A stretch of 64,000 nucleotides of DNA from Polaromonas sp. (GTDB taxonomy: Bacteria > Pseudomonadota > Gammaproteobacteria > Burkholderiales > Burkholderiaceae_C). Positions 28,480 to 42,418 of this stretch are shown here, piece by piece. Below the pieces are notes generated by a model. The model was given only the letters and a program-made list of their open reading frames with translations. It was not told the DNA's origin and made no database searches. How positions within the stretch are numbered: position 1 is the stretch's first letter; each line of letters begins with the position of its first letter. The translations under genes and the position numbers were made by a program. The stretch is from assembly GCA_031363755.1 (NCBI GenBank), contig JANLUZ010000122.1, forward strand, positions 3,631 to 67,630. The letters run 5' to 3'.

Positions 28480-28545
28480 GCACCCAGCGCTTTACCTTCC
28501 CACCTGCCGTTCGGGTAACGCTCGGCCTTTTTGAAAGCCACTGTG

Positions 28546-29220
28546 ATGCCTTTTCGCCTGACACCCCTGACGCCTCTGACGCGTTTCGCCATTTTTCCGG
28601 CTATCTTTGTTGTGCTGGCCCTGTCAGCCGCCCTGGGGCTGCTTGCGGGTTGCGGCAAGACCCCCGGCGCTGCGGCACCCGCCGCCCCGACAACCCCCGC
28701 CGCGTCGGCAGCCTCTGCCCGCGTAAAAGCGGTCACGCTCGAGGCTGTGGCGGCTGAAGGCGTCGGCTTCTCGGTCGGCTCCAGCATGGCAGCGCACACG
28801 GTGTATGTATTTTTTGACCCCCAATGCCCGCACTGCACCGAGCTGTGGAAGGCCGCCCGCCCGTTGACGACACGGGCGCGGTTCGTGTGGATGCCGGTCG
28901 GCCTGCTGAACGACACCAGCCGCCTCCAGGGTGCAGCGCTGCTCGCGGCTGGCGACCCGGTGGCCGCCATGGATGCGCACGAAGCCTCCATGCAAGCCGG
29001 CAAGGGCGGTATCGCAGCGGCCAATGGGGCTGACAAACAACTGGCGGCTGTGGCCACCAACACCGCACTGATGACGCGCCTGGACTTCACCTCCATCCCT
29101 ACGCTGGTGGCCCGTCACGCCCAAACCGGCGCGCTGGTGACACATCAGGGTTCCTTGTCCACCACCGCGCTGGCTGCCATGCTGGGCTTGCCGGTTTCTA
29201 TGGCAGGGCAGGGGTCCTGA
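28546..29220 (+). CDS. DsbC/DsbG-like thioredoxin-fold lipoprotein
   Basis: Lipobox LLAG-C, VYVFFDPQCPHC, FVWMPVG, cis-Pro SIPT. Confidence 0.8.
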   Translation: MPFRLTPLTPLTRFAIFPAIFVVLALSAALGLLAGCGKTPGAAAPAAPTTPAASAASARVKAVTLEAVAAEGVGFSVGSSMAAHTVYVFFDPQCPHCTELWKAARPLTTRARFVWMPVGLLNDTSRLQGAALLAAGDPVAAMDAHEASMQAGKGGIAAANGADKQLAAVATNTALMTRLDFTSIPTLVARHAQTGALVTHQGSLSTTALAAMLGLPVSMAGQGS

Positions 29221-29413: not shown

Positions 29414-29467
29414 ATTTAGCCCGCTAGCCCAGGTATCTACTGCCTGGACTGCTATTTTTTGATGAGC
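29414..29467 (+). repeat. Repeat family A copy
   Basis: ATTTAGCCCGCTAGCCCAGGTATCTACTGCCTGGACTGCTATTTTTTGATGAGC; overlaps the stop of the convergent hydroxylase gene. Confidence 0.85.
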
Positions 29468-30057
29468 GCAGTAGTGGCGTCGCGGTCAGTTTTGAAGACA
29501 CTGTCCCAGAGTGACAGGCTGACGCCGTAGCGCCCTGGCTGCACACCGCTGGCCTGCTTGAGGTGGTGCACCGCGTGCCACACCTTGCGCTGCTGCAGCC
29601 AGCGGCTGCCCACGCTGCTGCCGCTGCGCCAGTGGTGCACGGCGTGGTGTGTCACGGCATACACAAAGTAGCCAGCTGTCACCCCCAGAGTGAGCGCTGT
29701 CCCGGCAGCGCTGCCCAGCGCCCACCAGGCGGGCGCCAACACCAGCAGGCCGATCAACCCTGCGCTGACGACGGTTGGTGTGCTGATGCGCGCCATGGGC
29801 TGGGCGTGGTGGGCCGCGTGCCAGCGGTTGAACGGCGCCAGTCCATGCAACACAAAGCGGTGGAGCCCATACTCCAGCAGCGACCAGGCCGCGAAGCCAC
29901 CCAGCGCCAGCGCAGCCAGCAATGCGCGCTGGCCCACTGCGGCATGCAGCCCTACAAAAATCAGCATGGCACCGACCGCAGCGCCGTAAATGACAAAGTC
30001 CGCGCAGTAAGCCATGCGGCTGTGTGTGATCGAAAAAAGTCCCGTCCAACGCGTCAT
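29452..30057 (-). CDS. Sterol desaturase / fatty-acid hydroxylase family membrane protein
   Basis: His boxes EYGLHRFVLH, HAAHH, THHAVHH, WHAVHH; YGVSLSLWDSVF. Confidence 0.85.
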   Translation of the reverse strand: MTRWTGLFSITHSRMAYCADFVIYGAAVGAMLIFVGLHAAVGQRALLAALALGGFAAWSLLEYGLHRFVLHGLAPFNRWHAAHHAQPMARISTPTVVSAGLIGLLVLAPAWWALGSAAGTALTLGVTAGYFVYAVTHHAVHHWRSGSSVGSRWLQQRKVWHAVHHLKQASGVQPGRYGVSLSLWDSVFKTDRDATTALIKK

Positions 30058-30151: not shown

Positions 30152-30167
30152 TGTGCGTCACCGCACA
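30152..30167. promoter_or_regulatory. Crp/Fnr-type palindrome TGTGCG-TCAC-CGCACA
   Basis: Perfect inverted repeat; the motif recurs seven times in intergenic DNA of the island. Confidence 0.7.
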
Positions 30168-30194
30168 GCAAGGCGCTGCCAGGTTGTGCGCATA

Positions 30195-30210
30195 TGTTCG
30201 ATAGCGCACA
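30195..30210. promoter_or_regulatory. Crp/Fnr-type palindrome TGTTCG-ATAG-CGCACA
   Basis: Same motif, upstream of the first Crp/Fnr gene. Confidence 0.65.
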
Positions 30211-30309
30211 TACTTATGAGCTGACATTGACTACAGTCGGCAACTTTACCTACAGTTGCCGACGACGCCAGAGGGTGTGCTTCATCGACTTTACGCCTGA
30301 CCATTGCCT

Positions 30310-31047
30310 ATGCCGCTTAAAGCCAAATCCGTCAAACATGACGACCTGAACCAAAATCGCCTGCTGTCGTCCTTGCCCGAGGCGGAGTTGGCTCGCTGGC
30401 GGGCGGAGCTTGAGGCGGTGGACATGCCCCTGGGTTATGTGATTTATGAGTCGGGCAGCACACTCACGCATGTGTACTTTCCCACCACGGCGATTGTGTC
30501 GCTGCTGTATGTGATGGAAAACGGCGCTTCGGCTGAAATCGCGGTGGTCGGCAATGAGGGGCTGGTGGGCGTCTCGCTGTTCATGGGCGGCGGCTCCACG
30601 CCCAGCCGGGCCGTGGTGCAAAGCGCCGGCAAAGGCTTTCGGCTCGCGGCCAGCGTGCTCAAGGAAGAGTTTGAACGTGCCGGGCCAGTCCTGCATCTGC
30701 TGCTGCGCTACACCCAGGCCCTGATCACGCAAATGGCACAAACGGCAGTGTGCAACCGCCACCATTCGCTCGACCAGCAGCTGTGCCGCTGGCTGCTGCT
30801 GAGCCTGGACCGCCTGCAGGGCAACCAGCTGGTCATGACGCAAGAGCTGATCGCCAACATGCTGGGCGTGCGGCGCGAGGGCGTCACGGAGGGTGCCTTG
30901 AAGCTGCAGCGGGCGGGCCTGATCAGCTACACCCGTGGCCGCATCACGGTGCTCGACCGGCCTGGCCTTGAAGAGCGCACCTGCGAGTGCTATGCCGTCG
31001 TCAAGAAAGAGTACGACCGGCTGCTGCCCAACACGCAAGCCAGCTGA
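30310..31047 (+). CDS. Crp/Fnr family transcriptional regulator
   Basis: cNMP-like domain (VYFPTTAIVSLL, VVGNEG) and HTH TQELIANMLGVRREGVT. Confidence 0.93.
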   Translation: MPLKAKSVKHDDLNQNRLLSSLPEAELARWRAELEAVDMPLGYVIYESGSTLTHVYFPTTAIVSLLYVMENGASAEIAVVGNEGLVGVSLFMGGGSTPSRAVVQSAGKGFRLAASVLKEEFERAGPVLHLLLRYTQALITQMAQTAVCNRHHSLDQQLCRWLLLSLDRLQGNQLVMTQELIANMLGVRREGVTEGALKLQRAGLISYTRGRITVLDRPGLEERTCECYAVVKKEYDRLLPNTQAS

Positions 31048-31193
31048 GTTCCCATGGGCGGTTGGGCTGCTGTGTTTTATGGCGCATGCGCGGTGCTTCA
31101 AGCAGGGTGGCCGCCCTTAAGTTGTCTTGTTGTGTAGTCCATCTTCGCCAGTGTTTCTCAGAGAGTCGCGATGCCTCGCTTTTGTGGTCACTA

Positions 31194-31209
31194 TGTGCGC
31201 TGGCACACA
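31194..31209. promoter_or_regulatory. Crp/Fnr-type palindrome TGTGCG-CTGG-CACACA
   Basis: Same motif with one mismatch, upstream of the second Crp/Fnr gene. Confidence 0.6.
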
Positions 31210-31286
31210 GCCAAGCGATCAAGTCATGCGTAGGCTGAAGTCGCAATGCTTTGCTTTATGCCCATCTGCAAGCCCACGAAGGCGAC

Positions 31287-32066
31287 ATGACCACTGATTC
31301 CCTGGCTTCCCCTGCCGTGCTGGCCCAGCCTAGCACTTCTCCGAGTGCCACCGCTCATAACCACCTGCTGGCAGTGCTGCCCGTTAAAGACCGAAAACAG
31401 CTGTTGAAGCTCTGCCAGAACGTTGATCTGGCACTGGGCGAAGTGCTGTGTGAACCGGGAACGCTCACTCGCCATGCTTACTTCCCGGTGAACGGTTTTA
31501 TTTCCCTGATCGCAACCAGCACGCCCGTGGCGCACCTGCCCCTGGCCGAACATCATGCGGGAATGGACGTGGAAGTAGGCATGGTTGGCCGTGAAGGCAT
31601 GCTGGGCGCCGAGTTGGTGCTGGGCGTGACCACCGCGCCCCTGCAGGCGCTGGTACAGGGAGCCGGGCTGGCGTTGCGGGTTGAGCAAAAAGCCTTCCGG
31701 CGCCAATTGGCGCTCAGTGAGCCGCTGCGCCGCCACCTGCTGCGCTATGTCTATGTGCTGATGGCGCAGCAGGCCACAACCGCCAACTGCCTGCGGTTTC
31801 ATCAAATCGGCCCGCGCCTGGCGCGCTGGCTGCTGATGAGCCAGGACCGCGCGCATGCCGACCACTTTCACCTGACACAGGAGTTTTTGGCCCACATGCT
31901 GGGCGTGCGGCGCGTGGGCATCACCGCAGCCGCCAGTGCGCTGCAGCGCAGCGGCCTAATTGCCTACCGGCGCGGCGAGTTGCAGGTACTGGACCGGCGG
32001 GGCCTCGAAACAGCGGCCTGCACCTGCTACAGCGTGGACCAGAGTCTCTACAACGCGGTGCTTTGA
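31287..32066 (+). CDS. Crp/Fnr family transcriptional regulator (paralogue)
   Basis: AYFPVNGFISL, GMVGREG, RLARWLLMSQDR, TQEFLAHMLGVRRVGIT. Confidence 0.93.
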   Translation: MTTDSLASPAVLAQPSTSPSATAHNHLLAVLPVKDRKQLLKLCQNVDLALGEVLCEPGTLTRHAYFPVNGFISLIATSTPVAHLPLAEHHAGMDVEVGMVGREGMLGAELVLGVTTAPLQALVQGAGLALRVEQKAFRRQLALSEPLRRHLLRYVYVLMAQQATTANCLRFHQIGPRLARWLLMSQDRAHADHFHLTQEFLAHMLGVRRVGITAAASALQRSGLIAYRRGELQVLDRRGLETAACTCYSVDQSLYNAVL

Positions 32067-32126
32067 TCACTTGAGCCCAGGCGACCCGGCCGATGTTTGG
32101 GTTGGGTGCCACGTCCTACAGCGCTG

Positions 32127-32142
32127 TGTGTGCTGGCGCACG
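32127..32142. promoter_or_regulatory. Crp/Fnr-type palindrome TGTGTG-CTGG-CGCACG
   Basis: Degenerate copy upstream of the aldehyde dehydrogenase. Confidence 0.55.
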
Positions 32143-32209
32143 GATTGAAATTCTCGCCAGTTTTACGCTGGTAGTCATGCTGCAGCCAGCACCTCAGAAA
32201 GTACGCCAT

Positions 32210-33592
32210 ATGAGCTATCAAAGCACCAACCCCTTCACCGGCACACTGGACAAAAGCTTTGCCGAGTTCACCCGCGAGCGGCTTGAGCAGTCGCTGGCCG
32301 ACGCGAACGACTGCTTCGCGCAGTGGAAAACCCGGCGGTTTGTGGACCGCGCGGCCGTGCTGCACAAAGCCGCCGCACTGCTGCGCGCCAATGTCGATGC
32401 GTTTGCCCGGCTGGCCACGCTGGAGATGGGCAAACGCATCACCGAGGCGCGGGGTGAGGTCAGCTTCAGCGCCAATATTCTGGACTACTACGCCGAGCGA
32501 GCCGAGGGCTTTCTGGCTCCGCACAAGCTGCACCCGGTGGCCGGGGAAGCGCACATGGAAAGCTCGCCGCTGGGTGTGCTCTTTTGTGTGGAGCCATGGA
32601 ACTTCCCCTTCTACCAGCTGGCGCGTGTGGCGGGCCCACAGCTCATGGCCGGCAATGTGCTGGTGGTCAAACATGCGGGCTGTGTGCCGCAATGCGCCAT
32701 GGCGTTCGAGCGGCTGCTGCTGGACGCAGGCGCGCCCAAAGGCCTCTACACCAACCTCTTCATTTCACACGACCAGTCGGACCAGGTGATTGACGACGCG
32801 CGCATCAAGGGTGTGGCCCTGACGGGCAGCGTGGCGGCCGGCCGGCGCATTGCGGCGCGCGCCGGGCACAACCTTAAAAAGTCCTCCATGGAGCTGGGCG
32901 GCAGCGACGCGTTCATCGTGCTCGAAGACGCAGACCTGGCCACCACCATCCCCTGGGCGGTGTGGGGCCGCATGTACAACGGCGGGCAAACCTGCTGCGC
33001 GGCCAAGCGCTTCATCGTGGTGGACGCGGTGGCCGATGCGTTTTTGGCTCAGTTCACTGCCGCGTTGACGCTACTGACGCCCGGTGACCCGATGGACGAG
33101 GCCACCACGCACAGCCCGATGTCAACCGAGGCAGCGCTGCTTCAACTGCTGAAGCAGGTGGACACCGCGATCGACCATGGGGCCAGGCTGCTGATGGGCG
33201 GCGGCCGCATTCAGCGGCCCGGTAGCTTCATGGAAATCACCATCCTGTCAGACATCAAGCCCGACAACCCGGCTTACCGCGACGAGTTTTTCGGCCCGGT
33301 GGTGTCATTTTTCCGGGTCAAGGACGAGGAAGCGGCGATTGCGCTGGCCAACGACTCGGACTTTGGCCTGGGTGGCTCGGTGTGGACGCAAGACATCGCG
33401 CGCGGCCAACGCGTGGCCAGCCGCATCGACACCGGAATGATGTTCATCAACAACATCGACTGGACCGATGCCGAGTTGCCGTTCGGCGGCATCAAGGACT
33501 CAGGCTACGGCCGCGAGTTGGGCAGCCTGGGCATTCAGGAATTCGTGAACAAAAAAATGGTTCGGCTGGTGGCGCGCAGTGCGCCGTCCTGA
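32210..33592 (+). CDS. NAD-dependent aldehyde dehydrogenase (succinate-semialdehyde dehydrogenase-like)
   Basis: EPWNFPFYQ, LTGSVAAG, MELGGSD, NGGQTCCA, DEFFGPV, PFGGIKDSGYGRE. Confidence 0.93.
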   Translation: MSYQSTNPFTGTLDKSFAEFTRERLEQSLADANDCFAQWKTRRFVDRAAVLHKAAALLRANVDAFARLATLEMGKRITEARGEVSFSANILDYYAERAEGFLAPHKLHPVAGEAHMESSPLGVLFCVEPWNFPFYQLARVAGPQLMAGNVLVVKHAGCVPQCAMAFERLLLDAGAPKGLYTNLFISHDQSDQVIDDARIKGVALTGSVAAGRRIAARAGHNLKKSSMELGGSDAFIVLEDADLATTIPWAVWGRMYNGGQTCCAAKRFIVVDAVADAFLAQFTAALTLLTPGDPMDEATTHSPMSTEAALLQLLKQVDTAIDHGARLLMGGGRIQRPGSFMEITILSDIKPDNPAYRDEFFGPVVSFFRVKDEEAAIALANDSDFGLGGSVWTQDIARGQRVASRIDTGMMFINNIDWTDAELPFGGIKDSGYGRELGSLGIQEFVNKKMVRLVARSAPS

Positions 33593-33639
33593 CAAGCCCA
33601 CGGCACGGCGCAGGCCATGTTGCAGTTGTTTTTTACGTC

Positions 33640-33693
33640 AAATCAGCCGCTAGACCAGGTATTTATTGCCTGGACAGCTATCAATAACGAAGC
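33640..33693 (+). repeat. Repeat family A copy
   Basis: AAATCAGCCGCTAGACCAGGTATTTATTGCCTGGACAGCTATCAATAACGAAGC. Confidence 0.85.
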
Positions 33694-33759
33694 AATAGGC
33701 GGAGTGCCGCTCCCCGGCCAACCCCGCCGCTTCCTCATGTTCCAACCTTAAGGATCACC

Positions 33760-34791
33760 ATGACCCCCACCATGCACGCCGCTGTCGTCACCGCCTTCGG
33801 CCAGCCGCTCGAGTTGCAGGAGCTGCCCGTTCCCACCCCCGGCCCGGGCCAGGTGCTGGTCAAGACCGAAGCCTGCGGCGTATGCCACACCGACGTGCAT
33901 GCGGCCGACGGCGACTGGCCCCTAAAGCCTGGCCTGCCTTTTATTCCGGGGCACGAGGGCATTGGCATCGTGGTAGCGCTGGGCGCTGGCGTCACGGCAG
34001 TAAAGGAAGGCGACCGCGTCGGCGTGCCTTGGCTGTACTCGGCTTGCGGGCACTGCGAATACTGCTTGGCGGCACGCGAGCCGGTGTGCGCGCAGGCCCA
34101 ATTCGGCGGCTACACGCAGAACGGCGGCTTTGCCGACTTCATCGTCGCCGACCCGAACTACGTGGCGCATATTCCCGCCGGGCTCGCCCCGCACGAGGCA
34201 GCGCCGCTGATCTGCGCGGGCGTCACCTCCTACAAGGGCCTGAAGGAAACCCAGGCCAAACCCGGCCAGTGGGTGGTGGTGTCGGGTGTGGGCGGGCTGG
34301 GGCACCTGGCGGTGCAATACGCGCGGGCGATGGGCCTGCGGGTGTGCGCCGTCGATGTAGACGACGCCAAGCTGGCGCATGCCACGCGCCTGGGTGCTGA
34401 CGTTACGGCCAATGCCCGCCACCCGAATGTGGTGGAACAGGTCAATCAAGTGACCGACGGCGGCGCGCATGGCGTGCTGATCACCGCGCCGTCACTGCCC
34501 GCCTTCAAGCAGGGCGTGGCCATGACGCGCAAGTGGGGCACCTGCGTACTGGTGGGCATTCCGCCGGGGGAGTTCCCCACGCCACTGTTTGATGTGGTGG
34601 CCCGCTGCATCACGATTCGCGGCTCCTTCGTCGGAAGCCGCAGCGACATGGCCGAGGCCCTGGCGTTTGGCGCACGCGGCGCGGTCAAGGCCGACATCGA
34701 ACTGCAGCCGCTGGGCTCCATCAACACTGTGATGCAGCGGCTTAAAAACGGCCAGGTGCCATCACGCGTGGTGCTGGACTTTGCCGGTTGA
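33760..34791 (+). CDS. adhP: Zinc-dependent alcohol dehydrogenase (AdhP type)
   Basis: CGVCHTDVH, GHEGIG, ACGHCEYC, GVGGLGH. Confidence 0.92.
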   Translation: MTPTMHAAVVTAFGQPLELQELPVPTPGPGQVLVKTEACGVCHTDVHAADGDWPLKPGLPFIPGHEGIGIVVALGAGVTAVKEGDRVGVPWLYSACGHCEYCLAAREPVCAQAQFGGYTQNGGFADFIVADPNYVAHIPAGLAPHEAAPLICAGVTSYKGLKETQAKPGQWVVVSGVGGLGHLAVQYARAMGLRVCAVDVDDAKLAHATRLGADVTANARHPNVVEQVNQVTDGGAHGVLITAPSLPAFKQGVAMTRKWGTCVLVGIPPGEFPTPLFDVVARCITIRGSFVGSRSDMAEALAFGARGAVKADIELQPLGSINTVMQRLKNGQVPSRVVLDFAG

Positions 34792-34818
34792 TTGATTCAC
34801 AACACTGGAGCCATCGAC

Positions 34819-35667
34819 ATGACTTACAAAACCCTGATGGTGCACCTGCAACTGGGCACGACGAATGTACCGTTGCTGCAGGCCGCCGTGGCGCTGGCCC
34901 GGCAATTTGACGCACGCACCGTGGGCATTGCGGCGTGCCAGCCGTTGCAAATTGTGTACGGCGACGGCTATGTCAGCGGTGAGCTGTACGAGCAGGACCG
35001 CCTGCAAAACAAGCAGCGCCTGCAGGCGGCAGAAGATGAGTTTCAGACCGCAATGCAGGGCCAGGTGCCTGATGCGGCCTGGCGTTCCACCGTAACGTAT
35101 GCCGCACCTGCCGATTACTTGGCCGAGCAGGCGCGCTGTGCGGACTTGGTCCTCACCGGCTCACCTGCCACGCCGGGGGCCACGTCGGAGGGCGATCTTT
35201 TCGGGCCATCACGGGCGGTCAATACCAGCGACCTGGTAATGCGCGTGGGCCGGCCCGTGTTGAGGGTGCCGAACGCGCCCGGGCCCCTCAAGCTGGCGCG
35301 GGTGGTGGTGGCCTGGAAAGACACGCGTGAAGCGCGCCGCGCCGTGGCCGACGCGCTGCCGCTGCTCAAGCGCGCCGCCTATGTGGCCGTGATTGCCGTG
35401 GCGCCCAACGGTGGCCTGGATACCGCCAACCTGCAGCTCAAGGATGTGGCCGCCTGGCTGCTGGCGCATGGCGTTCAGTGTGAGGTGATGGCCTCGCTGG
35501 CCACCGGCAACGACGGCAACGCGTTGTACACCCTGGCGCAGGACGCGGGCGCCGACGTGATGGTCGCAGGCGCTTATGGCCACAGCCGCTTGCGCGAGTG
35601 GGCGTTGGGCGGCGTGACGCGAGACCTGCTGCTGGGCGGCGAGCGCTGCGCGTTTTTGTCGCACTGA
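34819..35667 (+). CDS. Universal stress protein (tandem USP domains)
   Basis: ADLVLTG, VVVAWKDTREARRAVADALP, VMVAGAYGHSRLREWALGGVT. Confidence 0.88.
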   Translation: MTYKTLMVHLQLGTTNVPLLQAAVALARQFDARTVGIAACQPLQIVYGDGYVSGELYEQDRLQNKQRLQAAEDEFQTAMQGQVPDAAWRSTVTYAAPADYLAEQARCADLVLTGSPATPGATSEGDLFGPSRAVNTSDLVMRVGRPVLRVPNAPGPLKLARVVVAWKDTREARRAVADALPLLKRAAYVAVIAVAPNGGLDTANLQLKDVAAWLLAHGVQCEVMASLATGNDGNALYTLAQDAGADVMVAGAYGHSRLREWALGGVTRDLLLGGERCAFLSH

Positions 35668-35905
35668 TGCAGCGCTCTCGTCACCGTGCCGCGCCATCGG
35701 CATGGCTAATCCCCAACCGACGGTCTTCTGGAGCAGCGCACGCGCTGTCCTACCCACTTAAAAGGCAAACGCCGCTTTTGCTGGCGCCTCCCCGACGCCA
35801 CACTCAATGTCAAACTTAACGCCACTGCATCTGCTGTGCGCCACGGCGTTTTAGCCTAGCCAAAACGCTTTTTTTGTTCACCACAGTCTTTACAGCGACC
35901 CGACC

Positions 35906-36475
35906 ATGAACACACCCACCGCCGCCGCTACGCCACCCGCCCGCTTTTCATTGCCTTGGCTGGCGAGAGCGGGCACAGGTCTGGTGAGTCCGTTGCTGGC
36001 GGCTGGGACGTTAGCGTTTGCGCCAGTCCGTCTGACACCGGAGGACGCCACGCTCAACCCGACCATCAGCAGTTATCCGACACCCGTGGGGTTCGTGGCC
36101 CTGATATCAGCCTTTCGGCCCAGCGGTGGAACCGCAAGGGGCGACGACCTGAGCCACCATCTGGACGCTGAAGCGCCAGGCTCCCTGACCCAGCTGGCGC
36201 AGCAAATTGCGTCGGGCAATATTTTGAATTTCCAATGGCGACAAAGCTTCTGGGTGCCGCTGTTTCAGTTCGAGCCGGGCACCTGCGAAGTGCGAGCGTG
36301 CGTCTCGCGGGTCATGCAGGAACTTAAAGACGCGTTTGACAGCTGGGAAACTGCTGTGTGGTTTGTACAGCCGCACCCGCTGCTGGGCGGTGCACGGCCG
36401 CTGGCGCTGCTCGACTCGCAGCCTCAGCGCGTGGTGAACGCTGCCCGCAACGACCGCTATGTCGCTATAGGATAA
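35906..36475 (+). CDS. Hypothetical protein with C-terminal Xre/MbcA/ParS-like motif
   Basis: 189-aa ORF in typical codon usage; C-terminal TAVWFVQPHPLLGGARPLALL. Confidence 0.65.
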   Translation: MNTPTAAATPPARFSLPWLARAGTGLVSPLLAAGTLAFAPVRLTPEDATLNPTISSYPTPVGFVALISAFRPSGGTARGDDLSHHLDAEAPGSLTQLAQQIASGNILNFQWRQSFWVPLFQFEPGTCEVRACVSRVMQELKDAFDSWETAVWFVQPHPLLGGARPLALLDSQPQRVVNAARNDRYVAIG

Positions 36476-36526
36476 GCCGCGCAGATCGTACTTGGCGCAT
36501 TGAGCGCCCATGCCGTCTTCACCGCC

Positions 36527-36949
36527 TTATTTCACCATCAGCACCGGTCTGTCACTGTCAGTGACCACGCGCTGGGCCACGCTGCCCATCAGTGCGCGCC
36601 CCAGCCAGCTGTGGCCGTGGGTGCCCAGTACCACCATGTCCACGTTTTCACGCTGGGCAGCGGCGACGATTTCATCCACGGGGTTGCCCACCACCGACAG
36701 ACAGCGGTGGGCGATGCCGTGTTGCGCAAGCCATTGGCGCGCAGGCGCTAGCACCTTTTCAGCTTCTTCTGCGTGGTAGGCGGCCACATCGGCGGCGCCC
36801 AGCATGGTGGTGACGCGGCCCGGTACTGGCGGCTGCACATTGATGACGATCACCTCGTAAGTTCCCGCCATCAATTCACGGTGTTCGCCCAGAAAAACCA
36901 GTGCTTTTTGGGTAAAGGCGCTGCCGTCAGCGGCTAAAAGTAATTTCAT
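36527..36949 (-). CDS. Universal stress protein (single domain)
   Basis: MKLLLAADGS, DMVVLGTHGHS, LMGSVAQRVV; RBS GGAG upstream of ATG 36949. Confidence 0.9.
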   Translation of the reverse strand: MKLLLAADGSAFTQKALVFLGEHRELMAGTYEVIVINVQPPVPGRVTTMLGAADVAAYHAEEAEKVLAPARQWLAQHGIAHRCLSVVGNPVDEIVAAAQRENVDMVVLGTHGHSWLGRALMGSVAQRVVTDSDRPVLMVK

Positions 36950-37077
36950 GGGGGTCTCCTGAAGGGGGGCGTCAAACGCGCTCGATGTACTGGGCCGTGC
37001 CTGCAGCTTTTGTGGCGAAGAAGGCCTGCGGGCGACAAGCGCAATGAGCATTCTGCGAATGGCGTGTGCGGCTTGTC

Positions 37078-37093
37078 TGTACGACAACGCACA
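37078..37093. promoter_or_regulatory. Crp/Fnr-type palindrome TGTACG-ACAA-CGCACA
   Basis: Same motif upstream of usp. Confidence 0.65.
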
Positions 37094-37152
37094 GTGTGGG
37101 TAAATATGCGGCGACGCAACATTTGAAAATAAGTGAAAAAAATCACGCATTG

Positions 37153-37168
37153 TGTTCGGCAACGTACA
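37153..37168. promoter_or_regulatory. Crp/Fnr-type palindrome TGTTCG-GCAA-CGTACA
   Basis: Same motif in the same intergenic region. Confidence 0.65.
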
Positions 37169-37312
37169 GATCGTGTAGGACAAGCGCCCGAAAATTCAGT
37201 GCTGGGGCTAACGCTCTTGCATGAAACGCGCCGCGCAAAGGTCTTTTATGATGAAGCCCACCCAGCCCGCCGCGACGTCAATTTCAATCCGCATTCACGG
37301 TGAAAGGGCCGT

Positions 37313-37525
37313 ATGACAGCCGACAAAGAACTGAACCCACTGGATGGTCAGCCTGATGCTGTGACGCCAGTAGCGAGCCTGAAGACCCACGGTAGCGAGG
37401 CGAGTGCCTGCTCGCAAGGCAATTGCGTCTGCAAACAACGCCTGCACGATTCCATTGCGGACGTGCCGCCGCGACGCCATGAGCTGGATGTGCTGCGGAT
37501 GTACATGGGAAAGTTGTCTGAGTGA
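37313..37525 (+). CDS. Possible small protein (70 aa)
   Basis: ATG preceded by AAAGGG; lies in otherwise empty space downstream of two Crp-type sites; no recognisable family. Confidence 0.3.
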   Translation: MTADKELNPLDGQPDAVTPVASLKTHGSEASACSQGNCVCKQRLHDSIADVPPRRHELDVLRMYMGKLSE

Positions 37526-37635
37526 GGCCATGGCTCACATCCGGCACGCTCTTTGACTCATAGCGTAAGGTAAAGCAAACGCCAGGGCTAGGAGCCCATT
37601 ACGCCGAACAATAAACGCTTTTGAGTGAACGCCGA

Positions 37636-38451
37636 CTAGTGCAGCTCGGCGCCAATGCCCCGAAACCCCTTGAACTGACACTGGTTGTTAAACATCGGCT
37701 CGCCACTGACCCGAAACTGCTGCGGGGTACCCAGCGCTGTCGTGCGGCTGAACAGAAAATCGTGAAATGGCTGGCGCGCCGCAATCATGGCGTGCAGTAC
37801 TTGCCGCTCGGCCTCGTTCCAGCCCGTCTGCTCCGCCGTGACCTCGCTGCTGAACAGGGCAGTCATGCGCATGCCCATCACGTCCTCTACCGGGCCTGAC
37901 ACCGTGGTGAATTCGCCGGTTTCGTTTTGCTCCCAGTACCAGTCCGAGGCAAGTTCGGCCAGCGCGCGAAAGCGCGCCTCACTGGCGCTGAGCTGCGCGG
38001 TGCGCGTTGCCACCATGCCTTCAAGGGCCTCGTTGTAAGACCCCAGCCGCCGGTAAAGCAGGCGTGTTTCCAGCATGTTGTGAATGCGGGTGGTGACTTC
38101 AAGCAGGTCAAACGGTTTGCTGACGAAGTCCCGCGCGCCCGCTTGCAGGGCCTGCAGTTTGTGGGCAGGCTCGGCGGTCAGCACGATCACCGGCAAATAG
38201 TGGTCCTTGCTGCGCTTTTTCAGCGCTTCCATCACCGCAAAGCCGTCCATGGCGGGCATGACAAGGTCTAGCAGGATCAGGTCGTAGTTGTGGGCGTCGT
38301 GCAAGCTAGCCACCTCGGTGGGCTCCAGGGTGGAGCTGATGTTGGTGTAGCCGGCTTGCGCAAGCAACTGGCTGAACATCACGATGTTGGCCGCTTGGTC
38401 GTCGACGATCAGAATGCGGGCTGCCAAAATTTCAGCAGGGTCGATGGTCAT
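37636..38451 (-). CDS. Response regulator receiver plus PAS domain protein
   Basis: ILIVDD, DLILLDLVMP, FVSKPF; coiled coil then RFRALAELASDWYWEQ PAS ending GFRGIG. Confidence 0.88.
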   Translation of the reverse strand: MTIDPAEILAARILIVDDQAANIVMFSQLLAQAGYTNISSTLEPTEVASLHDAHNYDLILLDLVMPAMDGFAVMEALKKRSKDHYLPVIVLTAEPAHKLQALQAGARDFVSKPFDLLEVTTRIHNMLETRLLYRRLGSYNEALEGMVATRTAQLSASEARFRALAELASDWYWEQNETGEFTTVSGPVEDVMGMRMTALFSSEVTAEQTGWNEAERQVLHAMIAARQPFHDFLFSRTTALGTPQQFRVSGEPMFNNQCQFKGFRGIGAELH

Positions 38452-40172
38452 GTCAAATCCTTCGGGTGATGGGGAGCGGCGCTTGCGGCCTTGGTAGCCG
38501 CAGCCAGCGCAAACGCCTCGTCCAGCGCCTTCGTCAGTGCGTTGATTTTGATGGGCTTGGTCAGGTAGGCAAAAAAGCCGTTAGCCAGGCCGCGTTCGAT
38601 GTTGTGCGACATGGCATTGGCCGACAGCGCGAGCACCGGGATATGCTGCAGTGCAGGGTCGTTTTTCAACACGGTCAGGACTTCAAGCCCGCTCATGCCG
38701 GGCAGGTTGATGTCCATCAAAACGATGTCGGGCAGGCTGCTGCGCACCAACGCCAGCCCGCTCGGGCCGTCGCGTGCCGACAGCAGGCGCACGTCGGTGC
38801 GGCGAGCCATCACGGCCTCCACCAGCATCAGGTTGGCGGGGTTGTCTTCAACGTACAGCAGCGTGTGCACCACGGCCTGCACTTCCGGCGGCCCGGCGGT
38901 GCAGGCCAGCAGGGCGGCATCGGACGGCTGCGCAGCGGGCAGGGGGACCAGCGCCAGGTCGATCCAGAACATACTGCCGCGCCCGCATTCGCTGTCCACG
39001 CCGATGCTGCCGTCCATCAACTCGACCAGGCGCTTGGCCATCACCAGGCCAATGCCTGTGCCTTCCTCGCCGCCCGTTTCCTGCCCTAAGCGGTTGAAAG
39101 GCTGAAACAGCTGCGTGATCTGCTGGCGGCTTAAGCCCACGCCCGTGTCGGCCACGCCGATGCGCAGGCGCCCAGGCTGGGTTGAAGAGCAGTCGACCAC
39201 CACCGAGCCGCCCAGGGTGTTGTACTTGATGGCGTTGGTCAGCAAGTTGGACAGCACCTGCTTGAGCCGTGTGCGGTCGGCACGCACAAACAGCGAGGCG
39301 CGTGGCTGCATGAACACCACACTGACACCGCGCTGGGCGGCCTGCACTTCGACCATGGCTTCGCATTCGGTCATGACCTCACTGAGTGGCACGGGCTCCA
39401 GCGACAGCGACAGCTTGCCCGATTCGACCAGCGCCAGGTCAAGAATGTCATTGATCAGCGCTAACTGGTACCAGCCTGCCTGCAGAATCTGGTCCACGCT
39501 GCGCTGCTGAAGTGGGGTGGGTGGCGGAAGCCCGGTTTCCAACAGCTGGGCAAACCCCAAAATAGCGCCCAGCGGCGTGCGCAGCTCGTGGCTCATGCTG
39601 GACAAAAACTCGGACTTTGCGCGGTTCGCCTTGTCAGCGGCAGCCCGTGCAATTTCAAGCGCGTCGTTCTGGGTTTGCAGCGCCCGGGCCATGCGCTTGT
39701 ATTCCGAGATGTCGGTGTGTGCAATCACCGCGCCCGTGCGCTGGCCACTGCCCAGTGGCAACACGCACATGGCAAACCAGCGCTCTTCAGTCGGAGAGTG
39801 ACAAGGGTATTCCATAGCAAAACGAGGCAAGTCCCCACTGAGCACGCCCAGAATGCCGGCATACGAGGGCGACAGGCCTTCTGCGCTGTCAGCGGTGGCG
39901 GCGCACACGGCCAGGTAATTGGTGCCAATGTCGGTGTGCGGCGCGGGGACGCTGAGCTGCACGCCATTGGCGCTGGCAAACACGCGCCACGGGTCGTTCA
40001 CCTGCCGGATCACACCGTTCAGGTCGATCACCGCGATCTCAGCGGCCAGTGAATTCAGGATCGCGGTGTTGAACGCGCTGGTGTCGGGGCCCACCAGCAG
40101 CTGCAGCGCGCGGTCCCACGCCGCGTCGGCCGGCGCGGGGATCTGAGCGGAACTCACGACAGCTTTGGACAT
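38448..40172 (-). CDS. Hybrid sensor histidine kinase (PAS-HisKA-HATPase-REC)
   Basis: FLSSMSHELRTPL H-box, NLLTNAIKYN, DTGVG, GTGIGL, C-terminal LLYVEDN / DIVLMD receiver. Confidence 0.92.
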   Translation of the reverse strand: MSKAVVSSAQIPAPADAAWDRALQLLVGPDTSAFNTAILNSLAAEIAVIDLNGVIRQVNDPWRVFASANGVQLSVPAPHTDIGTNYLAVCAATADSAEGLSPSYAGILGVLSGDLPRFAMEYPCHSPTEERWFAMCVLPLGSGQRTGAVIAHTDISEYKRMARALQTQNDALEIARAAADKANRAKSEFLSSMSHELRTPLGAILGFAQLLETGLPPPTPLQQRSVDQILQAGWYQLALINDILDLALVESGKLSLSLEPVPLSEVMTECEAMVEVQAAQRGVSVVFMQPRASLFVRADRTRLKQVLSNLLTNAIKYNTLGGSVVVDCSSTQPGRLRIGVADTGVGLSRQQITQLFQPFNRLGQETGGEEGTGIGLVMAKRLVELMDGSIGVDSECGRGSMFWIDLALVPLPAAQPSDAALLACTAGPPEVQAVVHTLLYVEDNPANLMLVEAVMARRTDVRLLSARDGPSGLALVRSSLPDIVLMDINLPGMSGLEVLTVLKNDPALQHIPVLALSANAMSHNIERGLANGFFAYLTKPIKINALTKALDEAFALAAATKAASAAPHHPKDLT

Positions 40173-40292
40173 GACAGGATGTGACGGCGGGGTGGATTGC
40201 GCAACGCCTAGAGTGCTACCCCCCCTTGACATCCTGCGCAATGAAAAAATCGTGTTGGCCTACGTATATTCGAGCCAATGGCTGACGCAGTC

Positions 40293-40308
40293 TGTTCGTT
40301 ACCGCACA
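40293..40308. promoter_or_regulatory. Crp/Fnr-type palindrome TGTTCG-TTAC-CGCACA
   Basis: Same motif about 120 bp upstream of the hybrid kinase start. Confidence 0.65.
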
Positions 40309-41176: not shown

Positions 41177-42418
41177 TTAGAACAGCACCCGGGTGCGAAT
41201 GGTGCCGGGGACTTCGGCCAACTTGGCCAGCGCGGTGTCTGAATGGGCTGCGTCAATATCAATCACCACATAGCCCACGGCCTCATTTGTCTGCAAAAAC
41301 TGCGAGCAAATGTTGATGTGATTGTCTGAAAACACCTTGTTCACGTTGGACAGCACACCCGGCACGTTGTGGTGAACGTGCAGCAAGCGGTGCTTGCCGG
41401 GGTGGGCGGGCAGGGCGACTTCTGGGAAGTTAACTGACGAAGTGGAGGTGCCGTTGTCGGAGTACTTCACCAGCTTTTCAGCCACCTCGATGCCGATGTT
41501 TTCCTGTGCCTCCAGCGTGGAGCCGCCCACGTGCGGCGTCAAAATCACGTTGTCCAGCCCGCGCAGGGGCGACTCGAACGTGTCTTTGTTGCTGCGCGGC
41601 TCGATGGGAAACACGTCAATGGCGGCGCCCAGCAGCTTTTTGACGCGCAGGGCGTCGGCCAGCGGCTCAATGTCCACCACCGTGCCGCGTGAGGCGTTGA
41701 TGAACACGCTGCCGGGCTTCATCGCCGCAATTTGCGTCGCGCCGATCATCCACTGGGTGGCCTGGGTTTCAGGCACATGCAGGCTCACCACGTCGGCCTG
41801 CGCCAACAAATCCTCCAGGCGCCCCACCTGCCGGGCGTTGCCTAGCGGCAGCTTAGTCACCACGTCAAAAAACACCACCTGCATGCCCAGCGCCTCGGCC
41901 AGCACCGACAGCTGCGTGCCGATCGAGCCGTAACCGACGATGCCCAGCGTCTTGCCTCGAATCTCAAAAGCGTTGTCGGCCGACTTCAACCAGCCGCCAC
42001 GGTGCGCCACAGCGCTTTTTTCAGGCACGCCACGCAACAGCAAAATCGCCTCGGCCAGCACCAGCTCGGCCACAGAGCGGGTGTTGGAAAACGGCGCGTT
42101 GAACACCGCAATGCCGCGCTCGCGGGCCGCCGCCAAGTCCACTTGGTTGGTGCCAATGCAAAAGCAGCCAACAGCCGCCAGCCGATGTGCGTGCGCAAAT
42201 ACCTCGGCCGTGAGCTGGGTGCGGGAACGAATGCCGACGAAGTGCACATCGGCAATTTTGGCCAGCAGCTCATCGCCTTCGAGTGCGCCCGGCAGGCTTT
42301 CAATGTTCGTGTAGCCCGCCGCGTGCAGCACTTTTACCGCTGACGGGTGAATGCCTTCAAGGAGCAGGAACTTGATCTTATTTTTGTCAGTGGAGGTTTT
42401 AAGTGGTGTGTCGAGCAT
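41177..42418 (-). CDS. serA: D-3-phosphoglycerate dehydrogenase
   Basis: GIRSRTQLT, GCFCIGTNQVD, NTRSVAELV, GIVGYGSIG, TPHVGGST, C-terminal ACT domain. Confidence 0.97.
   Translation of the reverse strand: MLDTPLKTSTDKNKIKFLLLEGIHPSAVKVLHAAGYTNIESLPGALEGDELLAKIADVHFVGIRSRTQLTAEVFAHAHRLAAVGCFCIGTNQVDLAAARERGIAVFNAPFSNTRSVAELVLAEAILLLRGVPEKSAVAHRGGWLKSADNAFEIRGKTLGIVGYGSIGTQLSVLAEALGMQVVFFDVVTKLPLGNARQVGRLEDLLAQADVVSLHVPETQATQWMIGATQIAAMKPGSVFINASRGTVVDIEPLADALRVKKLLGAAIDVFPIEPRSNKDTFESPLRGLDNVILTPHVGGSTLEAQENIGIEVAEKLVKYSDNGTSTSSVNFPEVALPAHPGKHRLLHVHHNVPGVLSNVNKVFSDNHINICSQFLQTNEAVGYVVIDIDAAHSDTALAKLAEVPGTIRTRVLF

Follow-up and report, generated by a model that had tools for sequence, protein, structure and literature searches.

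The question raised by this locus is which protein reads a palindrome that recurs around two adjacent Crp/Fnr-family genes of Polaromonas sp., and what its binding would do there. CRP binds TGTGA-N6-TCACA and FNR binds TTGAT-N4-ATCAA, both with a 16-bp span. An earlier note on the 64,000-nucleotide stretch that was analysed (the window) had listed seven copies of a TGTNCG-N4-CGYACA-type palindrome and a half-site at 35835. In the reading favoured here, to which we give a probability of roughly 0.8 on the sequence evidence, the palindrome would be the operator of one of the two proteins, Crp1, acting as a class II activator of its own gene and of its neighbours in the island.

Exact matches to TGTNCGNNNNCGNACA occur five times in the window, at 30152, 30195, 37078, 37153 and 40293, compared with a mean of 0.10 and a maximum of 2 in shuffled windows (0 of 100 shuffles reached five). 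Sites were scored with a weight matrix derived from 25 orthologous sites in other genomes, the Polaromonas genome being left out. The sites at 31194 (one mismatch) and 32127 (two mismatches) also fit this matrix, with 16.5 and 11.1 bits, so the count of seven copies holds. Beyond these seven, no position in the window reached 11 bits (the next were 1541 with 9.0 and 23327 with 8.2 bits), which agrees with the claim that the window has no further copies. The half-site at 35835 scored −10.0 bits and has to be dropped as a site; its hexamer, TGTGCG/CGCACA, is so common (54 occurrences in the window) that it carries no weight. All seven sites were outside likely coding sequence, as the note had stated; Box 4 falls within the longest ORF call, yet precedes ATG 32177, which is in frame. 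The seven sites, whose strength on the independent matrix varies from 11 to 33 bits, are as follows, each with its −10-like hexamer.

Box 1, 30152..30167: divergent fatty-acid hydroxylase promoter; exact match, 18.5 bits; TAACTT 21 nt downstream on the minus side
Box 2, 30195..30210: predicted autoregulatory site of crp1; 33.3 bits, best in the genome; TACAGT 21 nt downstream
Box 3, 31194..31209: crp2 promoter; genome rank 6; TAGGCT 21 nt downstream
Box 4, 32127..32142: before the aldehyde dehydrogenase/Zn-ADH/tandem-Usp genes; weak, genome rank 25; TACGCT 21 nt downstream
Box 5, 37078..37093: promoter of a single-domain usp (minus strand); exact match, 16.4 bits; CAGAAT 22 nt downstream on the minus side
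Box 6, 37153..37168: faces a 70-aa ORF (plus strand), possibly a second usp promoter (minus strand); exact match, 19.3 bits; GAAAAT (plus side) and TATTTT (minus side), each at offset 21
Box 7, 40293..40308: promoter of the hybrid kinase/response regulator operon; exact match, 26.4 bits, genome rank 2; GAATAT 21 nt downstream on the minus side

Box 1 lies 43 bp upstream of Box 2. The position of Box 2 is also occupied in orthologous loci, and a separate crp2 site is missing in most relatives. Profile searches confirmed the gene identities given earlier for the fatty-acid hydroxylase, the two Crp/Fnr genes, the aldehyde dehydrogenase, Usp and the hybrid kinase. The genes of the island are as follows.

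29452..30057, minus strand: fatty-acid hydroxylase family gene (PF04116, 2.3e-16); putative target
30310..31047, plus strand: crp1, 245 aa (HTH_Crp_2, 1.1e-14); probable box reader
31287..32066, plus strand: crp2 (HTH_Crp_2, 1.4e-14); inferred start ATG 31287
32177..33592, plus strand: aldehyde dehydrogenase (PF00171, 1.7e-125); putative target
33760..34791, plus strand: Zn-dependent alcohol dehydrogenase (ADH_N and ADH_zinc_N)
34792..35667, plus strand: Usp-domain protein (PF00582), of tandem-Usp size, one domain matched in Pfam
35906..36475, plus strand: 189-aa protein, no Pfam family, conserved near crp1 loci
36527..36949, minus strand: universal stress protein, usp (PF00582, 6.1e-24); putative target
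37313..37525, plus strand: 70-aa ORF of uncertain reality, codon-position GC ambiguous
37636..38451, minus strand: response regulator (Response_reg only), a receiver and a PAS-like C-terminal part without DNA-binding output
38448..40241, minus strand: cytoplasmic hybrid histidine kinase with PAS-like N-terminus, HisKA, HATPase and receiver

The Zn-dependent alcohol dehydrogenase gene, upstream of which no box of at least 8 bits was found, is probably in one transcription unit with the aldehyde dehydrogenase gene. The matrix scan gave no credible box of its own for the 189-aa gene, whose product has homologues in five other crp1 loci and faintly matches, in its C-terminal part, the antitoxin family TIGR02293. 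The 70-aa ORF had no family match and no homologue in any fetched locus. Homologues of the fatty-acid hydroxylase adjoin boxes in seven other loci, and those of the hybrid kinase do so in 17 cases among relatives.

In the whole 3.14-Mb genome there are eight exact TGTNCGNNNNCGNACA matches, five of them inside 10.2 kb, and the reversed pattern used as a control gave seven, so across the genome this loose pattern is no commoner than background. What stands out is the clustering and not the genome-wide count (Poisson P of about 1e-10, or about 3e-8 once the number of such windows is corrected for), and the case thus rests on clustering and conservation; the enrichment for which the earlier note had proposed a genome-wide scan is seen in the island but not in the total. 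In the matrix scan of the genome, the island sites ranked 1, 2, 4, 5, 6 and 7, and the one other match among the top seven lies upstream of an unlinked PAS histidine kinase gene on another contig. An origin as chance matches, a dispersed repeat, an RNA hairpin or a terminator would be in keeping with the background-level count, and the box could fold into a 6-bp stem closed by a loop of 4 nt, but we regard it as barely credible in view of the clustering and the recovery of the sites by an independent matrix. The flanks more than 3 nt to either side of the box showed no conservation between copies, no Rfam family was matched, and the variable positions did not covary: positions 4 and 13 were complementary in 10 of 26 sites, compared with 9.4 expected, so the half-sites vary independently and the box is not an RNA hairpin. 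Against a terminator, the sites are located upstream of −10 elements and not after genes.

The extended consensus of the box is (GTA)TGTGCG-nTAn-CGCACA(TAC), a palindrome of 16–22 bp with a GT-N10-AC core. Among the 50 half-sites of the 25 orthologous sites, position 5 is C in 48 and position 6 is G in 49, whereas position 4 is weakly conserved (G, T or A; G in 25), and many orthologous boxes read TGTACG-N4-CGTACA. No paper on the TGTGCG-N4-CGCACA box was found in the literature.

The box follows crp1 across genomes. In relatives' loci, 26 of 29 hits had a box no more than 300 bp upstream of the crp1 orthologue; among 80 named loci, which include Variovorax, Acidovorax and Thiocystis among the box-bearing ones, 55 had a box within this distance (about 0.1 expected by chance, an estimate) and 25 had none. 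The strict pattern TGTDCGNTANCGHACA was present in 19 of 20 crp1-positive but only 2 of 20 crp1-negative relatives (Fisher 6e-8, although kin are not independent), and its reversed control gave seven matches over 41 genomes. For one B. cenocepacia orthologue, all the nearby sites are weak. These results uphold the idea of a self-regulating island with a non-canonical box, given the sites before both Crp/Fnr genes, their conservation upstream of crp1 orthologues and the co-occurrence with the regulator. The regulon would not be confined to the island: an eighth good site lies before the unlinked PAS kinase gene, and the pairing of regulator and box is found again in many Beta- and Gammaproteobacteria, partly on plasmids. 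Since palindromes of the TGT-N10-ACA kind are shared by more than one family, a regulator from another family could bind here, its linkage to crp1 being coincidental. This is very improbable: the presence or absence of the box follows crp1, the GT-N10-AC core with a 16-bp span is a hallmark of the Crp family (PMC10187061), and the island encodes no DNA-binding protein other than Crp1 and Crp2.

The promoter geometry suggests activation. Among orthologous promoters, TAnnnT follows the box at exactly 21 nt in 17 of 25 and in 24 of 55, and at any other offset in at most four promoters each. In the window, a −10-like hexamer was found at offset 21–22 on 7 of 7 gene-facing sides, compared with 1 of 7 opposite sides. 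A −10-like hexamer 21 nt downstream would place the box centre at about −41.5 of the inferred transcription starts, where the site overlaps the −35 position and keeps a fixed spacing to the −10 element, as class II activators do; such spacing in class II activation is known for CRP, FNR and NtcA. At crp1, this geometry would imply positive autoregulation. Binding over the −35 region can also shut out RNA polymerase, and sequence alone does not give the sign of regulation, so the boxes might instead be operators through which Crp1 silences the island until stress releases it. We think this quite improbable, because the rigid 21-nt spacing, with no −35-like element and kept over many genera, is a class II signature, and single-base spacing is not normal for repressor sites. 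As a separate observation, the spacing at Box 4 puts the predicted transcript start at ATG 32177, which would make the aldehyde dehydrogenase mRNA leaderless; this and the weakness of Box 4 count against Crp1 acting as the activator proposed here.

Both proteins carry a Crp-type winged helix-turn-helix (PF13545, 54.6 bits for Crp1 and 54.2 bits for Crp2; cut-off 27). For the cNMP_binding domain, Crp1 scored 26.7 bits, just under the cut-off of 27.5, and Crp2 gave no match; the cyclic-nucleotide pocket is poorly conserved. An identical protein to Crp1, also of 245 aa, is on record. As modelled by AF2 (pLDDT 86.8), with beta-barrel, long dimerisation helix and DNA-binding domain in the expected order, Crp1 is of the Crp/Fnr fold, and Foldseek aligned it across some 220 columns with M. 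tuberculosis CRP, GlxR and FNR, at TM scores of 0.73–0.75 and 13–21% identity. Crp1 and Crp2 are about 40% identical, and their recognition helices, REGVTE and RVGITA, both start with an invariant Arg-Arg. R189 and E190 of Crp1 match CRP R180 and E181, in keeping with the retained GT...AC core, but at the position of CRP R185 there is Glu in Crp1 and Ala in Crp2. The recognition helix of Crp1 is thus not that of CRP, nor is it that of FNR.

The shared Arg-Arg, the presence of both genes in the island and their tandem order, kept within the genus, would also suit a box whose main reader is Crp2 or a Crp1/Crp2 heterodimer, the paralogues dividing or modulating the sites (one might activate, for instance, and the other compete), and the wide spread of site strengths could reflect two specificities. 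This alternative is unlikely. In Crp2, the counterpart of CRP E181 is no longer Glu, the box goes with crp1 orthologues in different orders, and two genomes with only a distant paralogue (G010 and G022) had 0 and 1 strict boxes. Moreover, crp1-only loci (L040, L050 and L051) still bear strong boxes, implying that Crp1 alone suffices. As the Polaromonas genome has eight Crp/Fnr-family genes, the assignment of the box to Crp1 rests on linkage and co-occurrence.

Among known regulators, cyanobacterial NtcA acts at class II promoters with GTA-N8-TAC. The boxes that read TGTACG-N4-CGTACA fit this pattern and have the same spacing to the −10 (TAnnnT), and the faintest sequence matches point to NtcA; however, the consensus here has G at position 4 and a required inner CG, and organisms and target genes differ. 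Crp1 is not NtcA, as NCBIfam TIGR03697 gave 21.7 bits against a cut-off of 244.95. E. coli CRP, whose recognition-helix contacts have been described (PMC10187061), is similar in its 16-bp palindrome with GT-N10-AC core, its fold, the inferred −41.5 site and the Arg and Glu at the helix start. It differs in that box positions 5–6 are A-N, compared with C-G here, where position 4 is weak, in its helix (RETVGR, compared with REGVTE), in its low identity to Crp1 (about 16%), in the Pfam cNMP_binding match, which for Crp1 is under the cut-off, and in lacking the two-helix C-terminal extension with Cys-x-Cys. CRP proper is thus ruled out by C5/G6 and by helices that are not RETVGR (R180, E181, R185), and FNR proper by a box that starts TGT and not TTGA and by the N-terminal 140 residues of Crp1, which contain no Cys and hence no FNR-type Cys cluster. 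Clr of Sinorhizobium meliloti, which binds cAMP and cGMP, has the box HGTYHC-N4-GRWACA and the helix RPKVNR (PMC10127613, PMC10187061). Its box is likewise of Crp-family type, with conserved inner positions on both sides of a 4-bp spacer and a degenerate position 4. Clr is a precedent for a Crp clade that moves readout from position 4 towards positions 5–6. A Clr-type protein (Crp cluster G) is nevertheless ruled out by G at position 6, where Clr has C, and by the helix; in Foldseek, Clr was no closer to Crp1 than other Crp proteins (15% identity).

In the mechanism we propose, a Crp1 dimer would occupy one box, its centre some 41.5 bp ahead of each transcription start, and stand in for the −35 element, as in class II activation by CRP and FNR. 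Crp1 would thereby raise its own gene, in a positive feedback, and its paralogue crp2. Further predicted targets are the divergent fatty-acid hydroxylase, the aldehyde dehydrogenase/alcohol dehydrogenase/Usp unit, the second usp, the PAS hybrid kinase/response regulator operon and the one unlinked PAS kinase. Box-linked genes here and in relatives encode Usp, ADH/ALDH, Dps, SOD, PRC-barrel proteins, kinases and GGDEF proteins, suggesting a general stress or dormancy role. The low-oxygen-activated lxa locus of Burkholderia cenocepacia (Sass et al., 2013; PMC3721108) similarly combines two-component systems and Crp-family regulators with Usp proteins and an alcohol dehydrogenase under a single shared palindromic box. 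The lxa motif, however, is of the Anr/FNR type (TGA-N6-TCA), compared with TGTGCG-N4-CGCACA, and its low-oxygen induction was measured, whereas a low-oxygen response of the Polaromonas island would be hypothetical.

Across 26 sequences from the two paralogue clades, residues C148, H152, C225 and C227 do not vary. In a set of 150 proteins, each representing a cluster at 50% identity (the Crp1 clade comprises at least 4,200 of these clusters), C148 is kept in 145 and H152 in 146; where a residue is present in the column, C225 is found in 127 of 140 and C227 in 125 of 142. Cys148/His152 at the hinge, together with Cys225/Cys227 in the C-terminal extension, suggest a metal or iron-sulfur, redox-type sensor, which would fit a stress or low-oxygen trigger. 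Bacillus subtilis Fnr, as summarised in PMC3520743, holds a [4Fe-4S] cluster by three C-terminal Cys and Asp141. Judged from that summary, the candidate sensor of Crp1 would be alike in having C-terminal ligands and one near the dimer helix, not N-terminal ones, and unlike in having two C-terminal Cys (C-x-C) with Cys148/His152; the relationship is at family level only.

A tentative and rather doubtful extension is that this clade senses redox, oxygen or metal through a Cys3-His site joining hinge and C-terminal extension, and that with the PAS hybrid kinase and the output-less response regulator it would make up a self-amplifying and horizontally mobile switch to a dormancy or general-stress programme. 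No rpoS was found in the Polaromonas genome; if this reading is true, the switch would do the work of RpoS in Comamonadaceae.

A pattern search of the window for the 16-bp palindrome TGTNCG-N4-CGNACA (the box) returned exact matches at 30152, 30195, 37078, 37153 and 40293, whereas dinucleotide-preserving shuffles of the window gave a mean of 0.10 exact matches and never reached five. When up to two mismatches were allowed, 44 matches were found against 43 expected; the relaxed pattern is thus at background, and the degenerate copies at 31194 and 32127 require other support. In the whole 3.14-Mb assembly (209 contigs), eight exact copies were present compared with seven for the reversed-pattern control, so the loose motif is not enriched genome-wide and this argument was dropped in favour of clustering, an independent weight matrix and a stricter pattern. 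Of the eight copies, five fall inside 10.2 kb (Poisson P ~1e-10, or ~3e-8 corrected for all such windows). The local palindromes described in the earlier note are borne out, and it is their clustering that is exceptional. Alignment of all seven sites (boxes 1 to 7, numbered by position) extends the consensus to ~20-22 bp, tCTGTGCG-nYRn-CGCACAGa. The genes of this ~10-kb stretch (the island) are listed below; searches of Pfam and NCBIfam confirmed the identities that had been assigned from the sequence.

Genes of the island (PN, identified by Pfam/NCBIfam)
29452-30057, minus strand, fatty-acid hydroxylase (PN)
30310-31047, crp1, Crp/Fnr gene (PN)
about 31287-32066, crp2, Crp/Fnr gene (PN)
32177-33592, aldehyde dehydrogenase (PN)
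33760-34791, Zn alcohol dehydrogenase (PN)
34792-35667, Usp-domain protein of tandem-Usp size (PN)
35906-36475, 189-aa protein of unknown function
36527-36949, minus strand, usp (PN)
37313-37525, 70-aa ORF, doubtful
37636-38451, minus strand, response regulator without output domain (PN)
38448-40241, minus strand, cytoplasmic PAS-like hybrid histidine kinase (PN)

A first matrix, built from the window's own sites and hence circular, gave strong boxes in nearly all crp1 loci of relatives. Circularity was avoided by deriving a new matrix solely from 25 sites upstream of crp1 in other genomes and scanning the whole assembly with it. The result showed that the top seven sites of the 3.14 Mb were six island sites (33.3, 26.4, 19.3, 18.5, 16.5 and 16.4 bits) and one site on another contig, C10:564. 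The degenerate copy at 31194 was among these seven, while that at 32127 was weak (11.1 bits, rank 25). A half-site at 35835, which the earlier note had counted in the regulon, scored -10.0 bits and was rejected; the note's statement that the window holds no further sites stands, as no other position reached 11 bits.

The boxes might instead be copies of an RNA element or a repeat. Positions 4 and 13 are complementary in 10 of 26 sites (9.4 expected) and positions 7 and 10 in 8 (8.3 expected), and 4/13 are non-complementary in all but one of the five exact window sites; the variable positions of the half-sites change independently of each other. Flanking sequence differs from copy to copy, and an Rfam scan of 29.0-41.5 kb of the window returned noise only. 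On these three grounds an RNA element or repeat was rejected.

Of 40 relatives, 20 have a crp1 orthologue (E below 1e-90), in most cases followed by crp2. The strict pattern TGTDCGNTANCGHACA occurred in 19 of the 20 crp1-positive but 2 of the 20 crp1-negative relatives (Fisher 6e-8, with kin not independent), and its reversed control gave 7 hits over all 41 genomes. Among 80 named loci from species-representative genomes, 55 carry a box of at least 14 bits no more than 300 bp upstream of the crp1 orthologue, against a chance expectation of ~0.1 estimated from the hit density in the Polaromonas assembly. The hosts include Variovorax, Acidovorax, Rubrivivax, Ramlibacter and Hydrogenophaga and, among Gammaproteobacteria, Thiocystis violacea DSM 207, Thiocapsa, Thermomonas and Steroidobacteraceae. 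Boxes persist in crp1 loci without crp2 (L040, L050, L051), and crp2 has no box of its own in most relatives, suggesting that Crp1 rather than Crp2 is the more likely reader. No other DNA-binding protein is encoded in the island.

The position of the boxes relative to promoter elements was consistent. A TAnnnT hexamer begins exactly 21 nt past the crp1 16-mer in 17 of 25 orthologous promoters (at most two at any other offset) and in 24 of the 55 named loci (at most four). With this -10 element set at -12 to -7, the box centre lies at -41.5, the same class II layout as that of CRP, FNR and NtcA, implying that Crp1 would be an activator and that crp1 would be under positive feedback. In the window, the gene-facing hexamers are TAACTT, TACAGT, TAGGCT, TACGCT, GAAAAT and GAATAT at offset 21 and CAGAAT at offset 22; on the opposite sides a -10-like hexamer was seen at one of seven boxes, TATTTT by box 6, possibly marking a second usp promoter. 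Boxes 1 and 2, with 43 bp between centres, serve divergent promoters. The starts predicted from this layout are near 30244 (crp1), 30118 (hydroxylase, minus strand), 31243 (crp2), 32176 (aldehyde dehydrogenase), 37043 (usp, minus strand) and 40259 (kinase, minus strand). After box 4 (region 32164-32179), the -10-like TACGCT would set the transcript start at or within 1-2 bases of the first in-frame ATG of the aldehyde dehydrogenase, at 32177, ahead of which no Shine-Dalgarno sequence is present; this could mean a leaderless mRNA or, alternatively, a non-functional box 4. We regard the sites as real and, judging from sequence comparison, as very probable Crp1 operators at class II promoters (confidence about 0.8).

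Crp1 has its closest homologues in Polaromonas and Variovorax, and database names for its homologues are generic only. A sequence search of solved structures gave distant matches only (best 1.4e-6, to the HTH alone). The AlphaFold model (alignment A1) was confident (pLDDT 86.8, pTM 0.85) and superposed on M. tuberculosis CRP, GlxR, FNR, Clr and NtcA with TM 0.65-0.75 at 13-21% identity. Gapless alignment to the CRP HTH showed a recognition helix of R-E-G-V-T-E in Crp1 and R-V-G-I-T-A in Crp2, with an extra invariant Arg just ahead of it in both. In CRP, Arg and Glu contact the G:C pairs of TGTGA and R185 makes a third contact (PMC10187061); Crp1 retains the Arg and Glu contacts and loses that of R185, which fits a box in which GT...AC is kept, position 4 drifts and an inner CG is gained. 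A published precedent for such a shift is Clr of S. meliloti, with box HGTYHC-N4-GRWACA and helix RPKVNR (PMC10127613, PMC10187061).

Crp1 falls just under the cut-off for Pfam cNMP_binding, Crp2 has no match to this family, and an N-terminal Cys cluster is absent from Crp1. Four residues, Cys148, His152, Cys225 and Cys227, are invariant in both paralogue clades. The first two lie in the hinge at the end of the dimerisation helix, and the last two are flanked by a pair of additional helices at the C-terminus. Of 150 representatives of clusters at 50% identity, 145 have Cys148 and 146 have His152; where the representative has a residue at the column, Cys225 is present in 127/140 and Cys227 in 125/142. 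The oxygen-sensing cluster of B. subtilis Fnr, held by C-terminal Cys and one residue near the dimer helix (PMC3520743), is a precedent for C-terminal Cys ligands, and the Crp1 residues are candidate ligands.

Box-flanking ORFs of relatives (n = 194, both directions counted) were classed by similarity to island proteins. They comprised crp1 (74), hybrid kinases (17), fatty-acid hydroxylase (7), crp2 (6) and usp (1), and 89 ORFs without an island homologue, whose clusters were sampled for identity. The sampled clusters included single-domain receivers, GGDEF and EAL proteins, a Dps/ferritin gene divergent from crp1, Fe/Mn superoxide dismutase, DnaJ, PRC-barrel proteins, a flavodoxin-like reductase, OmpA, several small proteins of unknown function, a type II secretion operon and a two-partner-secretion (TPS-domain) protein. 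This content reads as signalling and general stress or dormancy, not anaerobic respiration; low oxygen, which the earlier note had offered beside stress, is possible as the Crp1 signal but unsupported. The lxa island of B. cenocepacia resembles this one in gene content but has a different, Anr-type motif, TGA-N6-TCA (PMC3721108), and was therefore rejected as the same system; no strong boxes were found near a Crp1 orthologue of this species.

The box at C10:564-579 (19.6 bits), on a 3.2-kb contig, has TACAGT at class II spacing and lies 111 bp ahead of a gene for a histidine kinase of 795 aa that contains four PAS domains; it belongs to the same regulon as the island, though unlinked in the assembly. 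A borderline box at C8:1672 (14.0 bits; TAGGCT at offset 22) precedes a cyclopropane-fatty-acid synthase gene. The pair C189:6488/6527 (12.4 and 9.7 bits, 39-bp spacing) lies in a 1.5-kb gap with genes for a BON-domain protein and an oleate hydratase (MCRA) downstream. The C8 and C189 targets are envelope/lipid stress themes, resembling the hydroxylase. The C189 pair, C110:12071 and C187:1829, all drawn from the circular matrix, reached ~10-12 bits with the independent one, had no convincing -10 element and are retained as weak leads. In the assembly (97% complete), eight Crp/Fnr-family genes were counted and no gene passed the NCBIfam cut-off for rpoS; the best matches were an RpoD-sized gene and a smaller sigma-70-family gene, taken to be RpoH-like.

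Crp/Fnr proteins rank among the commonest bacterial regulators, and to our knowledge box and signal are known for only a few of their clades. Neither the box (TGTGCG/CGCACA with Crp) nor signature peptides of the protein turned up anything relevant in literature searches. The size of the Crp1 clade in a representative library depends on the threshold: 22,050 clusters have E <= 0.001, 13,231 reach E <= 1e-10 and 4,200 reach E <= 1e-30. An operator, a promoter layout and target genes can now be assigned to this very large unnamed clade (13,231 clusters), which ranges over environmental Beta- and Gammaproteobacteria, plasmids and conjugative elements. The operator assignment makes its regulons predictable from sequence, and the four conserved Cys/His are a place to seek the signal; culturable hosts for testing are Variovorax paradoxus, Acidovorax, Ramlibacter pallidus and Thiocystis violacea DSM 207.

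Plasmids and chromids of Variovorax, Acidovorax, Ralstonia and Burkholderia carry orthologues at 70-80% identity, as does the P. aeruginosa conjugative element pKLC102, indicating that the module moves horizontally. The pKLC102 locus (86767-101483; Crp1 orthologue 70% identical) also holds a GH94 glucan-synthase-like gene, small hypothetical genes, a large SAM methyltransferase gene and a fatty-acid desaturase gene; its boxes are weaker (13-14 bits), one with TAGACT at class II spacing.

Several Polaromonas relatives have a crp1-crp2-kinase module that is flanked, like the island (flanks 28531-29220 and 41177-42418), by the thioredoxin-like gene on one side and serA on the other. The relatives' module lacks the hydroxylase, aldehyde and alcohol dehydrogenase and usp genes, so the island appears to be an enlarged form of a conserved insertion. 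Homologues of the 189-aa protein, whose C-terminal part is faintly TIGR02293/DUF2384-like, are present in five further crp1 loci. At least two of these (L041:12400-13331 and L051:11570-12661) have the homologue as second gene, after one for a box-bearing protein of 160-200 aa with no Pfam family. The window lacks this first gene, and the half-site at 35835 might thus be the leftover of its lost promoter.
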